Of a DNA stretch of 64,000 bases, positions 35,996 through 51,775 are shown piece by piece. Source of the stretch: an uncultured Bacilli bacterium (GTDB lineage: Bacteria; Bacillota_I; Bacilli_A; RF39; UBA660); NCBI GenBank assembly GCA_934101645.1, contig CAKORX010000006.1, positions 15,333 through 79,332 of the forward strand, given 5' to 3'. The first letter of the stretch is position 1. Every line of letters begins with the position of its first letter. Made by a program: the position numbers and the translations under genes. The notes under the pieces were generated by a model, which saw only the letters and a program-made list of their open reading frames with translations, made no database searches and was not told where the DNA came from.

Positions 35996-36027
35996 AAAAA
36001 TTAATCGTTTGTGATTAATTTTTTTTC
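35996..36027. terminator. bidirectional hairpin terminator shared by nusG and the convergent permease fragment
   Basis: A-run, AATTAATC-GTTTGT-GATTAATT, then a T7 run. The permease stop codon (36001-36003, minus strand) lies inside the stem. Confidence 0.65.
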
Positions 36028-36180
36028 TGTTAAAGAGACAATTAAATATAATAAATAGGAAAAGATAATTAATATAAATATTGACGACATTACTAGATCC
36101 AAATCAAAAACTTGTGTGCCATACATTATTAGATATCCAATACCTTTTTTACATGAAAGAAATTCTCCAGTTATAACTCC
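36001..36180 (-). pseudogene. 3' fragment (last 59 codons) of the NitT/TauT-type ABC permease, detached by element 1
   Basis: The minus strand reads GVITGEFLSCKKGIGYLIMYGTQVFDLDLVMSSIFILIIFSYLLYLIVSLTEKKLITND*. There is no start codon or RBS. It continues the permease that breaks at 41445. Confidence 0.8.
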
Positions 36181-36192
36181 ATCATAACAGGT

Positions 36193-36203
36193 ATGGGGAG
36201 AAA
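36193..36203. repeat. left arm of the element 1 terminal inverted repeat
   Basis: ATGGGGAGAAA matches the reverse complement of 41422-41432 (ATGGAGAGAAA) at 10 of 11 positions. Both arms are equidistant from the junctions. Confidence 0.6.
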
Positions 36204-36863
36204 TTCATAATAAAGTAGTATTTCAAAAATAAATAACTAATCTATGACAGTTATGCATATTGTAAATATGATGTAAAAGAGTAATATTGAGATTTTTGTA
36301 TTTAGTTGCATAAATTATATTATTTAATTTAATTGTGTTATAGAAAATACTTTAAAAAGACTAGGTTATGATTATGAAAAAATAATAAATATAGAAGTCG
36401 TTTTTTTATAAATAAACTATAAATATCTTGGAATAAAAAGAAAAACAAAAAATAAGTAAATTTGAATATGAATTGGAGGTATCTAAATAATGTATGTTGT
36501 TGATATAACAAGAGTTAATAAAAAAAGTATGATAGTGATATGTTGGTTGGTAAAATGATCACTGTTACTAAAACAAAGACAATGAATTATTATGCTCTTG
36601 CTAACTTACAAATTACTATGGAATCTTAACTATTAGATAAAGAATTAAATATGGATTTATTTTTCTTAAAATCATTTATAAAGGATAATTATAACATTGA
36701 TATTAAAGATGGATTAATAATACAAAGTATAAATGCTAATAAAGAAAATTGTGTGTTTGTTAAACAATTTATTTATAATAAAAATTCTTATTACTATATC
36801 TATCAGTTTTATAAAAATAGATTTTAAAAGTATGGTATAATATAAATTGAAGGTAGGTGTAAA

Positions 36864-37379
36864 ATGAAGAATACAATCATTAAGTCAGTATTAGCAGTTG
36901 TGTTCGGAATAGCTATAGGTATATTTTCAAAATGGGGAGATGTTATACCTGGTGATAATTTAATAAAATATTTTGGATGGATATCTACTGGTGTTATTAT
37001 TTGGTTGGCAATAGGTTCATTTTTAATTATCAAGACTAAGAATAGAAAAGAATTTAGTATTGTTTATTCATTATTTATGATATCAATGCTGATATCGTAT
37101 TATATTTTTTCTCTGGGGGTAGTTAAATACTTAGTTAAAAGAATAGTAATATTTTGGATTATAATGTTTATTGGATCACTTATCTTAGAAAATATAATAT
37201 ATGATAAAAAAAATACTAATTTGTTTAGAATATTATTTATTCTAGCTTCAATAATATTTTTGATATATGATGCCATAGAAATAAATGGAATTAATCTAAT
37301 AGCTATTATTCCTGAGGTATTAATGGTTGTATATGTTTTAATTATTATTAGCAAAAGCATAAAGAAATCTAAAAATTAA
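36864..37379 (+). CDS. hypothetical polytopic membrane protein (element 1 cargo)
   Basis: RBS GAAGGTAGGTG and about 5 hydrophobic helices. Confidence 0.45.
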   Translation: MKNTIIKSVLAVVFGIAIGIFSKWGDVIPGDNLIKYFGWISTGVIIWLAIGSFLIIKTKNRKEFSIVYSLFMISMLISYYIFSLGVVKYLVKRIVIFWIIMFIGSLILENIIYDKKNTNLFRILFILASIIFLIYDAIEINGINLIAIIPEVLMVVYVLIIISKSIKKSKN

Positions 37380-50192: not shown

Positions 50193-51192
50193 AGATATTA
50201 GCAAAATAATAACAAATGCTTTACAAGTTAATAAAGATAAATTAAGTGAAAATATAAAGTCAATAATTATGCAAATGAAAAAAGCTTTTGAAAGCAATAA
50301 GAAAATTATTGAACAGGCAAATTCTATTGATCAAAAAAATAATAATGGCTTTATTTTAGACTTTAATGTTATTGATAATATATTTTCTAATTTAGAAAAA
50401 GAAATTAGTATAATTTATGGTGATGTTATTCTTTCTCAAAAAGATGAAAATAAAAATATTATATATGGAACTCAAATAATGGATTATGGAAATGTAATTG
50501 TTATTACTGATGGTAATCCATATATTACTATTGAAATGGCCATTAGAAATATAATGGCTGGTAATACAACAATTTTTGCAAACGAAGGTTTTATGTTTGG
50601 CACTAATCAATTATTAATTCAAATAATGCAAAGTGTTTTAGAAATATATAGTTTATCTAAAAATTTAATTCAAATGTATGTATCTGAAAGTTTTGACGAG
50701 GTATTAGCAAATTTTTCTAATATCGATTTAGTAGTTTGTATAGGTAATCGTAGTTTACAAAATCTGATTTTAAATAAATCCAAAAACAAAACTATTGTTA
50801 GTGGGTATGAAAATTTTGATTTGTATATTGAGGATGCAACTCATATAGAATTTCTTAATAAAATGCTTGATACTGGACTAAATATTCAAGTATATATAAA
50901 TAGTGATATTAATTTAGATTATCATAATGCTATAATAGTTAGTGATATCGAAGAAGCAATTGCTCAAATTAATTACAATGGAAGTAGATATAGTTCTGCT
51001 ATATTTACTGCTGAAACAAAAAATGCTTCTAAATTTATTAAAGAAGTAAAATCAAAAATAGTAACAGTTAATACTAGTCCCACTATAGAAAGAATAATTG
51101 ACATAAATCAAACGGACTTAATAAATAAAAAAACTATAATATATCCATTCAGCTTTAAATTAGCTGGTAATAATGAAAAAATACAATTATAG
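50182..51192 (+). CDS. ProA-like (gamma-glutamyl phosphate reductase / ALDH-fold) protein, probably non-catalytic
   Basis: ATG at 50182 lies 7 nt after AGAGGTG and overlaps the stop of the giant ORF by 11 nt. Collinear resemblance to ProA blocks (IIEQANSID..NNG; NVIVITDGNPYITIEMAIRNIMAGNTTIF; IDLVVCIGNRSL; INYNGSRYSSAIFTAETKNASKFIKEVKSKIVTVNTSP). No counterpart of the catalytic-Cys segment. Confidence 0.45.
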   Translation: MEDKDISKIITNALQVNKDKLSENIKSIIMQMKKAFESNKKIIEQANSIDQKNNNGFILDFNVIDNIFSNLEKEISIIYGDVILSQKDENKNIIYGTQIMDYGNVIVITDGNPYITIEMAIRNIMAGNTTIFANEGFMFGTNQLLIQIMQSVLEIYSLSKNLIQMYVSESFDEVLANFSNIDLVVCIGNRSLQNLILNKSKNKTIVSGYENFDLYIEDATHIEFLNKMLDTGLNIQVYINSDINLDYHNAIIVSDIEEAIAQINYNGSRYSSAIFTAETKNASKFIKEVKSKIVTVNTSPTIERIIDINQTDLINKKTIIYPFSFKLAGNNEKIQL

Positions 51193-51259
51193 AAAATTCT
51201 AATAAGTAATATGCTTATTAGATTTTTTATTGTTATAATTGGTGTCCACATTACATTCA

Positions 51260-51271
51260 AGCAACTCTTTG
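51260..51271. repeat. 12-bp direct repeat AGCAACTCTTTG at the right junction of element 2
   Basis: Identical to 42378-42389. Confidence 0.75.
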
Positions 51272-51676
51272 TTTCATGCCACCAGATAAAGATGCCGGAT
51301 ATTTATCCATAAAATCTTTTAATCCGTACGTAGTTAGTAAATTTTTTACATATTCAACATTTTCCTTTGTATCTATTTTTTTGATTTTTAAGCCTAAAAT
51401 TGCATTTTCAAATATGTTTAAATAGGGAAGAAGAGCATCTTCTTGAAGCATATATCCTATAATTGGTTTTTCTTTAGAAAAAATCATTTTCCCATTATAA
51501 TTTTCAAGTCCTGCAATAATGTTTAATAATGTTGATTTACCACAACCAGATGAACCGACAATTGCAATAAATTCATTTTCAAACACATCAAAAGAGATAT
51601 CATCTATAGCATTTACTTCACCCTTGGGTGTATTAAATATTTTGTTAATATTTTGTAAACTTAAAAGTGGTTTCAT
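51260..51676 (-). pseudogene. 5' part of the ABC ATPase (Walker A to ABC signature), truncated by element 2
   Basis: MKPLLSLQNINKIF..., Walker A GSSGCGKST, Q-loop, and LSGGMKQRVA followed by an element-derived TGA. ATG at 51676 follows AGGTGA. Confidence 0.85.
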
Positions 51677-51775
51677 TTTTATCACCTATGATATTTTATT
51701 CAACTAATAAATTATGAACTATTGAAATAGTTTAGAAGTATATTTAAAAAGTTTAATAATTATGTTATATTTATA

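Follow-up and report, generated by a model that had tools for sequence, protein, structure and literature searches.

An ABC importer operon of uncultured gut Bacilli split by two large serine recombinase cassettes at fixed sites

Elements that carry a large serine recombinase (LSR) and intervene in a gene have been described in spore formers, namely skin with SpoIVCA and SPbeta with SprA/SprB (PMC4191935, PMC5499854), as well as gin, a non-phage LSR element inside the coding sequence of gerE of Bacillus cereus ATCC 10987, where excision would rebuild the gene (PMC5595907). In gin and SPbeta the recombinase is paired with a small accessory open reading frame (ORF), GirX and SprB, respectively. 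One operon can also hold several elements with their own recombinases, as in the nif elements of heterocystous cyanobacteria, which include the nifD element with XisA and the fdxN element with XisF (Calothrix NIES-4101; PMC11249958). Durrant et al. (2022; PMC10083194) reported that distantly related LSRs often target the same conserved gene at a conserved site, that certain functions (DNA competence) are strongly over-represented among the genes targeted by LSRs, and that the DUF4368 domain occurs mostly in a multi-targeting, transposase-like clade and in 0.73% of site-specific LSRs. Here we describe a 64-kb stretch of DNA from an uncultured Bacilli bacterium (contig CAKORX010000006.1; hereafter the window), in which a two-gene ATP-binding cassette (ABC) importer operon, encoding an ATPase and a permease on the minus strand (36001-51685), is cut into four pieces. 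The two intervening blocks are two different LSR elements that have inserted into the operon, which close relatives carry uninterrupted, and a comparison across species strongly supports the reading that this operon is a landing pad for both recombinase families.

Two insertions in one importer operon

The ATPase gene is divided into an N-terminal piece (51260..51676, minus strand; amino acids (aa) 1-139), which contains Walker A, the Q-loop, and the LSGG signature and ends ...LSGGMKQRVA before an element-derived TGA, and a C-terminal piece (42048..42389, minus strand; aa 136-248), which opens (QRVA)LIRTLAIKPDILLLDEPFSALD and contains Walker B, the D-loop, and the H-loop. Element 2 (42390..51259; 8870 bp) lies between them. 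The N-terminal piece of the permease gene (41445..42061, minus strand; aa 1-206) ends ...LNISLTLIG, after which its frame runs through 12 element-derived codons (LMVQWRENILKI and a stop) to 41405. Its C-terminal piece (36001..36180, minus strand; aa 206/207-264, VITGEFLSCKKGIGYLIMYG..., and the stop codon), whose first residues are VITGEFLSCKKG..., is found 5.3 kb away, beyond element 1 (36181..41444; 5264 bp). When 42390-51259 is removed in silico with one copy of a 12-bp repeat kept, the frame is rejoined into an open ORF of 248 aa from ATG, and removal of 36181-41444 with a join at the common GG gives a permease ORF of 264 aa. Pfam assigns the restored products to ABC_tran (2.7e-29) and BPD_transp_1 (2e-20), respectively. 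The original prediction had placed both splits at these coordinates and expected an ATPase of about 250 aa and a NitT/TauT-type permease of about 265 aa, which is in good agreement with the restored genes.

The restored proteins align end to end with intact homologues: the permease is 98% identical to P0001 over 100% of its 264 aa, and the ATPase is 97% identical to P0121 and P0122 over 100% of its 248 aa (P and L numbers denote homologous proteins and loci). The uninterrupted locus that had been anticipated in relatives is present on the metagenome contigs L008, L009, and L012, between the same neighbours as in the window, a DHH-CBS pyrophosphatase-like gene and nusG-secE. In blastn comparisons of empty sites with the window, the alignments end exactly at 51260/42389 with a 12-nt overlap (empty sites L008-L012), and a second break is seen at 41445/36180 with a 2-3-nt overlap (empty sites L001-L012). 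The loci L001 and L002 have an intact permease gene and yet the same element-2 junction in the ATPase gene, indicating that the two insertions vary independently in nature. Moreover, the double-split locus was found on at least 23 independent contigs from several samples and assemblies, with the strain represented in ERZ4561381, ERZ27286983, ERZ27287108, and ERZ27287039 among others; thus, the arrangement is not an assembly artefact.

Each block carries its own LSR, and the two are as dissimilar as had been proposed (about 25% identity in the catalytic domain); their genes converge on the 945-bp host remnant (41445-42389), also as proposed. LSR1 (40062..41408, plus strand; 448 aa) is convergent with the permease piece, its stop codon lying 36 nt from the junction. 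It matches Resolvase (PF00239, 6.7e-40, profile positions 3-144 of 145, with the motif YARVSTD) and Zn_ribbon_recom (PF13408, 2.2e-10), and weakly, under the cut-off, Recombinase (PF07508, 0.0047); its match to the PHROG 95 integrases has an E-value of 4e-108. LSR2 (43417..45003, minus strand; 528 aa) is transcribed in the direction of the ABC operon and matches Resolvase (7.9e-20, positions 1-144 of 145, with the motif YLRLSDE), Recombinase (2.4e-25), Zn_ribbon_recom (5e-10), and PHROG 95 (6e-94). A weak DUF4368 match of 22.6 bits at its C-terminus is also present in many LSR2 homologues. Both proteins therefore have a resolvase-type catalytic domain followed by a C-terminal recombinase/zinc-ribbon region, their ORFs are full length with complete catalytic-domain matches, and the ratio of non-synonymous (pN) to synonymous (pS) divergence is 0.16-0.24.

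The start of LSR1 is unusual in that no ATG, GTG, or TTG codon retains the catalytic serine; the frame opens at an ATA codon at 40062, 8 nt past AGGAGGAGG. Because of this start, automatic gene calls begin LSR1 at a TTG at 40215, giving a product of 397 aa without the catalytic serine. The ATA codon is kept in 47 of 54 homologues, down to 56% identity, the others having ATG (5), ATC (1), or ATT (1), and in these homologues it follows a strong AAGGAGG-type ribosome-binding site by 6-8 nt (window, L018-L076). A pseudogene assignment for LSR1 was considered and rejected, since an ATA start with a strong ribosome-binding site is the norm of the family.

A conserved small ORF stands upstream of each recombinase gene. 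The one of 41 aa (39833..39958, plus strand; MTNKVTNYDSNGKIINPKDIVIKIPLIYELIKKY...) adjoins LSR1 homologues in nearly all loci, and the one of 37 aa (45018..45131, minus strand; INTKYNVIEVMDKNITDTKLKQIINEKIFNIIEYSFN) lies directly upstream of LSR2 and has ATA as its start codon in the window and in L013, whereas other loci have ATG. The two are mutually unrelated, have no family match in PHROGs, and each stands beside its own LSR homologues in most loci. They are candidate directionality or regulatory factors for LSR1 and LSR2, respectively.

The attachment sites were reconstructed by joining the element ends for attP and the host flanks for attB. Element 2 is bordered by two copies of a 12-bp core, CAAAGAGTTGCT in gene sense (51260-51271 and 42378-42389, minus strand). 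Its attP2 has the form GTGTC-N17-GT-N17-GACAC with inner repeats CATTCAA/TTGAATG, and its attB2 the form GTGGC-N12-GT-N12-GACAC, so that the outer motif is 5 bp nearer the centre than in attP2. A structural model of large serine integrases predicts an outer motif 5 bp closer in attB, and structural work on LI integrase bound to attP reportedly gave the same 5-bp spacing rule. Differences at the L014 junctions put the element-2 crossover inside GTTG, which is consistent with the central GT as the predicted crossover dinucleotide. In attP1 the inverted arms are arranged as CTCCCCAT-N12-GG-N12-ATGGAGAG, and the crossover lies inside the T-G-G common to both junctions; the shift of the outer motif between attP and attB looks like 4 nt for LSR1, less clear than for LSR2. 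In LSR1 elements of opposite orientation the LSR-proximal arm has a flipped central dinucleotide (L034, with both junctions visible), as expected if this dinucleotide alone sets polarity. Overall, the sites have an imperfect dyad, a 2-bp crossover, a spacing difference between attP and attB, and an orientation that follows the dinucleotide.

LSR1 and LSR2 are predicted to integrate their cassettes by recombination between attP and attB and to excise them with the aid of a directionality factor. The putative target of LSR2 is the DNA encoding ...GG-M-K-Q-R-V-A-L-I-R-T..., just past the ABC signature, and that of LSR1 is the DNA encoding ...L-I-G-V-I-T-G-E-F.... The attB2 core CAAAGAGTTGC, which covers the codons Q-R-V-A after LSGG, hardly varies among 91 intact ATPase genes, even at third codon positions, and is the best-conserved nucleotide stretch around the site. 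This near-invariance explains how one recombinase family can use hosts with proteins that are 50-60% identical. The junctions predicted to form on excision are ...CACTAACACTTATTGGAGTTATAACTGGAGAA... for attB1 and ...CCTGTTATGATGGGCTAATGGTGCAATGG... for attP1, and ...GGCATGAAACAAAGAGTTGCTCTTATTAGGACAC... for attB2 and ...CTCATTCAAAGAGTTGCTTGAATGTAATG... for attP2.

Recurrent landing sites and horizontal spread

Relatives of LSR1 were sought in one genome per GTDB species, and 59 of the 61 loci returned were classified. The arrangement of the window, with LSR1 converging on a permease N-terminal piece that stops at aa ~206-211, was found in 46 loci, and the opposite orientation at the same codon in five; four loci were at contig ends and four were unclear. 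Of the 55 informative genomes, each representing a species of gut Bacilli, 51 thus have an LSR1 relative at this one permease codon. Where the permease C-terminal piece is visible, the LSR1-type elements measure 2.6-8.8 kb and differ in cargo. Examples of the opposite orientation, in which the LSR adjoins and is co-directional with the permease C-terminal piece, are L031, L034, L040, L066, L068, and L074.

LSR2 homologues of 57-74% identity, reached by protein search and contig look-ups or seen on the LSR1 and metagenome loci, split the orthologous ATPase gene at aa 136 in more than 15 independent loci with differing chromosomal neighbourhoods, among them L014, L015-17, L025-27, L030, L032, L039, L067, L073, L091, and L105. 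The original prediction had offered a preferred landing pad as one of two explanations, and the use of one permease codon by LSR1 and one ATPase codon by LSR2 directly supports it. It had also called two hits in adjacent genes unusual, which does not hold in this clade. The state of the ATPase gene could be scored in 48 LSR1 loci: 30 have it intact, 13 have it split at aa 136, and five show it truncated at another position or only in part; an LSR2 homologue is visible in 10 of the 13. With both genes split in 13 of 48 loci, the four-piece architecture is recurrent rather than a one-off.

To this was added a metagenome scan with the permease profile, comprising the 80 best full-length matches. 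Such a scan is biased against split permeases and was therefore used only for the occupancy of the ATPase gene next to an intact permease gene, in which setting the ATPase gene was intact in 57 loci and split at aa 136 in four. The comparison of 13 split and 30 intact ATPase genes beside a split permease with 4 of 69 split beside an intact permease (Fisher p = 0.0008) gives a hint that double occupancy is favoured.

A third LSR of 356 aa, 32% identical to LSR1 and 29% to LSR2, uses a third site in the ATPase gene in L162/L163. This site lies at aa ~190, after the H-loop (...VTHDLGEA), and has its own 10-bp repeat, TAGGTGAAGC; the insert (L162, 5487-10789) carries three cargo ORFs of 410, 169, and 229 aa. 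ATPase pieces that start at aa 154-190 in L045, L056, L057, L072, L103, and L120 may reflect the third LSR or further elements. Separately, L045 contains an LSR1 homologue with a permease C-terminal piece, a full-length permease gene 1.5 kb away, and an LSR ~40% identical to the third LSR, and no permease piece is visible at L063, which has two LSR1-family genes 9 kb apart; tandem or nested elements may account for these loci.

The divergence of elements and hosts indicates that the cassettes arrived late. L018, from a Hadza-gut metagenome-assembled genome (MAG), aligns colinearly with 15.7 kb of the window, both elements included, at 96.8% identity. Between the two, pS is 0.13-0.46 in host genes and 0.007-0.11 in element genes, and the elements are therefore younger than the split of the two genomes; either they were acquired separately at the same sites or they were exchanged later. 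The host pieces have a pN/pS of 0.06-0.10 in this comparison, a value that is uninformative on the interrupted state because the host genes had mostly diverged before the insertions took place. LSR1 pN is less than half that of the adjacent host permease in 226 of 990 locus pairs. Extreme cases are L047/L048, with an LSR1 pN of 0.000 and a host pN of 0.41, and L056/L057, with an LSR1 pS of 0.02 and a host pS of 0.49; hosts whose permeases share only ~50% identity can carry near-identical LSR1 genes. Since LSR1 divergence is far below that of the host permease in many pairs, the cassettes have spread horizontally among species. In the all-pairs scan, vertical co-inheritance fits a single pair, L033/L036, in which the changes are too few to be interpreted.

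Cassette contents and host operon

Both cassettes are small and non-phage, consisting of variable cargo, a conserved small ORF, and an LSR at one end. The cargo of element 1, all on the plus strand, comprises a 171-aa hydrophobic protein without a family match (36864..37379), a desulfoferrodoxin/superoxide-reductase-like protein that recurs in five elements (37430..37810), an XRE/Cro-CI-type helix-turn-helix protein with a hydrophobic segment (37895..38479), and a 129-aa protein with an N-terminal hydrophobic segment that recurs in seven elements (39278..39667), the small proteins of this element being hydrophobic or secreted. Element 2 carries a RhuM-like gene (42555..43358, minus strand) matching the PADLOC candidate defence families PDC-S23 and PDC-S05; the match spans profile positions 1-264 of 327, and the protein is probably truncated at its C-terminus. 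In the window this gene is a single ORF of 267 aa, compared to a 107-aa RhuM and a 204-aa Fic ORF on L001 (150-1112); the two versions are ~95% identical in DNA, and a frameshift or truncation has probably affected one of them. A large ORF of 1640 aa (45270..50192, plus strand) has no match in Pfam, NCBIfam, PADLOC, PHROGs, or PDB sequences and is present in L018 at 99% nucleotide identity with a pN/pS of 0.37. Its end is overlapped by a 342-aa ORF (50164..51192, plus strand) resembling glutamate-5-semialdehyde dehydrogenase (ProA) and aldehyde dehydrogenases, well under the family cut-offs.

No phage structural, packaging, or lysis genes were found, PHROGs matching only the integrases and the repressor-like helix-turn-helix protein, and a prophage assignment was rejected for elements of 2.6-9 kb without phage genes. 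Scans with Pfam, PADLOC, NCBIfam, and PHROGs detected no relaxase families among the window cargo; an origin of transfer (oriT) was not searched for.

The window is low-GC DNA (~25% GC) of a member of the Bacillota and contains a class B RNase P RNA. Its nearest relatives come from the guts of humans, ruminants, rabbits, and chickens and are MAGs named as uncultured Bacilli or "Tenericutes"; Candidatus Onthocola, a related genus, is placed in Bacilli incertae sedis. On one side of the operon is the divergent DHH-CBS-DHHA2 gene (51776-53404), on the other the convergent pair secE-nusG (35164-35995), and no second permease copy is present within the 64 kb. With ABC_tran and BPD_transp_1 domains, the importer belongs to the NitT/TauT family, nearest to taurine, sulfonate, and nitrate systems; the homologue P0049 is named 'NitT/TauT family transport system permease protein' in its source. 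All NCBIfam equivalog scores of the operon proteins are far under their cut-offs. The top matches, SaoA (198 bits against a cut-off of 360) and SaoP (77 against 295), raised a Sao assignment of the substrate, a system that is found in a selenoprotein/organometallic gene neighbourhood (10.1101/2022.07.06.499078); the assignment was rejected since that neighbourhood is absent here. No gene for a substrate-binding protein adjoins the operon in the window or at the empty site L008. An NMT1-type binding-protein gene precedes the orthologous operon in L015 (4238-5227).

Explanations for the split operon and relation to known systems

Collectively, the data are best explained by two independent cassettes that would have entered the ATPase and permease coding sequences by site-specific recombination between attP and attB, each recombinase family recognising one fixed, conserved stretch of the operon. 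The operon is accordingly the dedicated landing site of both families in low-GC gut Bacilli, with a third family at a third ATPase site, and the cassettes are recent arrivals moving horizontally between species. Integration splits the genes and should abolish the importer; precise excision, as modelled in silico, would restore both frames exactly. Double occupancy could most simply represent a second hit into an already inactive operon, at no added cost. The cassettes would accordingly be selfish and site-specific, harboured in a conserved and evidently dispensable operon, a reading to which we assign a probability of about 0.88 for those of its parts that are demonstrated.

Several points weigh against this explanation. 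The loss of importer function in the split state is something that we infer from the broken genes. Neither an excised circle nor an attP junction was found: in IMG/VR, scanned with the reconstructed attP2 core (CATTCAAAGAGTTGSWTGAATR) and attP1 (CCCCATACCTGYTATGRYGGNCTAATGGT), the attP1 pattern had no match and the attP2 pattern one. This single match, L079, was rejected as an excision product and is regarded as a chance match because it has no LSR2 homologue and no GTGTC arms. All 23 of the 23 contigs carrying this exact LSR1 have it in the integrated state. Taxonomy may confound the enrichment in double occupancy, which compares genomes found through LSR1 with metagenome contigs ranked by full-length permease matches. 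As for transfer between cells, a Mob_Pre relaxase gene lies near only one LSR2 relative (L013).

The cassettes could alternatively form a reversible genetic switch, which the host would keep or tolerate and by which a fraction of the cells would switch the importer on or off through regulated excision and re-integration. This resembles active lysogeny at Listeria comK or the excision of skin, SPbeta, and gin, but would operate in vegetative, non-sporulating gut Bacilli. The conserved small ORFs immediately upstream of each LSR would be directionality factors, and the weak ATA start, kept in 47 of 54 LSR1 homologues, would keep the recombinase low. The exact restoration of both frames and the purifying selection on both intact LSRs (pN/pS 0.16-0.24) favour such a switch, as does the lack of stops and frameshifts in the host pieces (48 permease N-terminal, 25 permease C-terminal, and 17 ATPase C-terminal pieces). 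Recent insertion, however, explains the intact pieces equally well, the element genes being far less diverged than the host genes. In L033/L036 element divergence equals or exceeds that of the host, and the split permease piece has nine synonymous and three non-synonymous changes, but these counts are too small to carry weight. In addition, no sample was found to hold both the empty and the occupied site, empty sites being seen only in other samples or strains, and no attP circle was found. A scan of 39600-45400 for promoters and terminators revealed no regulatory signal and is uninformative, with 54 promoter-like matches found against 50.5 expected in this AT-rich DNA, and the cargo varies freely, as expected of selfish cassettes. 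We consider a switch unlikely.

Targeted sabotage would instead attribute the choice of site to function: the elements would gain by knocking out the importer, for example one that admits a harmful compound, a toxin, or a competing element, in parallel to the benefit proposed when mobile elements interrupt competence genes. The convergence of three unrelated recombinase lineages, only 25-32% identical to each other and each with its own site, on one small operon of two genes would thereby be accounted for, and target choice by function has a precedent in DNA competence genes (PMC10083194). An operon that is merely conserved in sequence and dispensable, and hence a safe harbour, would be expected to draw the same convergence, and the best NCBIfam matches of the importer are far under the cut-offs. 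We regard sabotage as quite improbable. That the inserts are decayed, immobile relics in an operon permanently lost as a pseudogene is largely refuted. LSR1 has no canonical start codon, the RhuM-like gene looks truncated, and every contig of this strain is integrated; but the ATA codon with its strong ribosome-binding site is a family norm (47 of 54) and not a lesion, both LSR ORFs are full length and under purifying selection, and the host pieces are free of lesions. The element genes are also much younger than the host divergence, with near-identical LSR1 genes in hosts whose permeases are ~50% identical.

Our preferred explanation, selfish cassettes at fixed sites, leaves room for a bolder idea that we regard as doubtful, namely that the operon is a combinatorial reversible switch, with up to three cassettes at three sites gating one transporter in vegetative, reduced-genome gut Bacilli and excision governed by small partner proteins and by low recombinase levels from the conserved ATA start, or that silencing it benefits the elements. 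If the combinatorial switch were true, gene-intervening elements would act as population-level on/off switches of nutrient uptake outside sporulation or heterocyst development. The locus is a tractable natural system for asking why mobile elements choose genes, be it as a safe harbour, for sabotage, or as a switch. In dozens of uncultured species of gut Bacilli, one small importer operon serves as a common hot spot of integration, with cassettes that move between hosts whose target proteins are only ~50% identical. Points of moderate interest are the two to three unrelated recombinase lineages on one two-gene operon, the recurrent double occupancy, and the conserved ATA start, the last being a lead on how such elements hold recombinase expression low. 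For practical purposes, two and probably three previously undescribed LSR families with natural attB and attP sites, deduced from many independent integrations and real empty sites, could be added to the recombinase toolbox, and the annotation of MAGs would benefit, these ABC genes otherwise being called as fragments or pseudogenes.

The mechanism is standard LSR integration. A literature library searched for this target or clade returned no prior description of these elements or the hot spot, which is not proof of novelty. Among known systems, the staphylococcal cassette chromosome (SCC, SCCmec) with its Ccr recombinases resembles the cassettes here in having variable cargo, LSRs, no transfer genes of its own, and a fixed site within a conserved gene; it likewise passes from one species to another, and several of its cassettes can lie at one locus. 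SCC inserts at the 3' end of rlmH without inactivating this gene. The cassettes here differ in that they insert in mid-gene and split the frame, and in that each has a single recombinase in place of a CcrAB pair; the sequence similarity is remote, CcrB being the top NCBIfam match of LSR1 through its N-terminal domain only (144 bits against a cut-off of 900). XisF, itself an LSR, is among the best NCBIfam matches of both LSRs, far under the cut-off. The cyanobacterial nif elements are passed on vertically, and their excision belongs to terminally differentiated heterocysts, whereas the cassettes here are young and horizontally mobile, in hosts with no known differentiation.

Compared to gin, skin, and SPbeta, the likeness is that an element interrupts a coding sequence and its removal, here in silico, restores an intact gene. 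For those elements, developmentally programmed excision in a terminally differentiating mother cell was shown experimentally. In the present case the hosts are gut Bacilli that have not been cultured, and the interrupted genes serve nutrient import rather than sporulation; no excision has been observed, and the elements spread between species. An ABC ATPase or permease target is not mentioned in the text or supplements examined of the LSR survey of Durrant et al. (PMC10083194). Its principle that distant LSRs share a conserved target cluster holds here, and a difference lies in LSR2, which has a weak DUF4368 match and yet is strictly site-specific in every locus seen.

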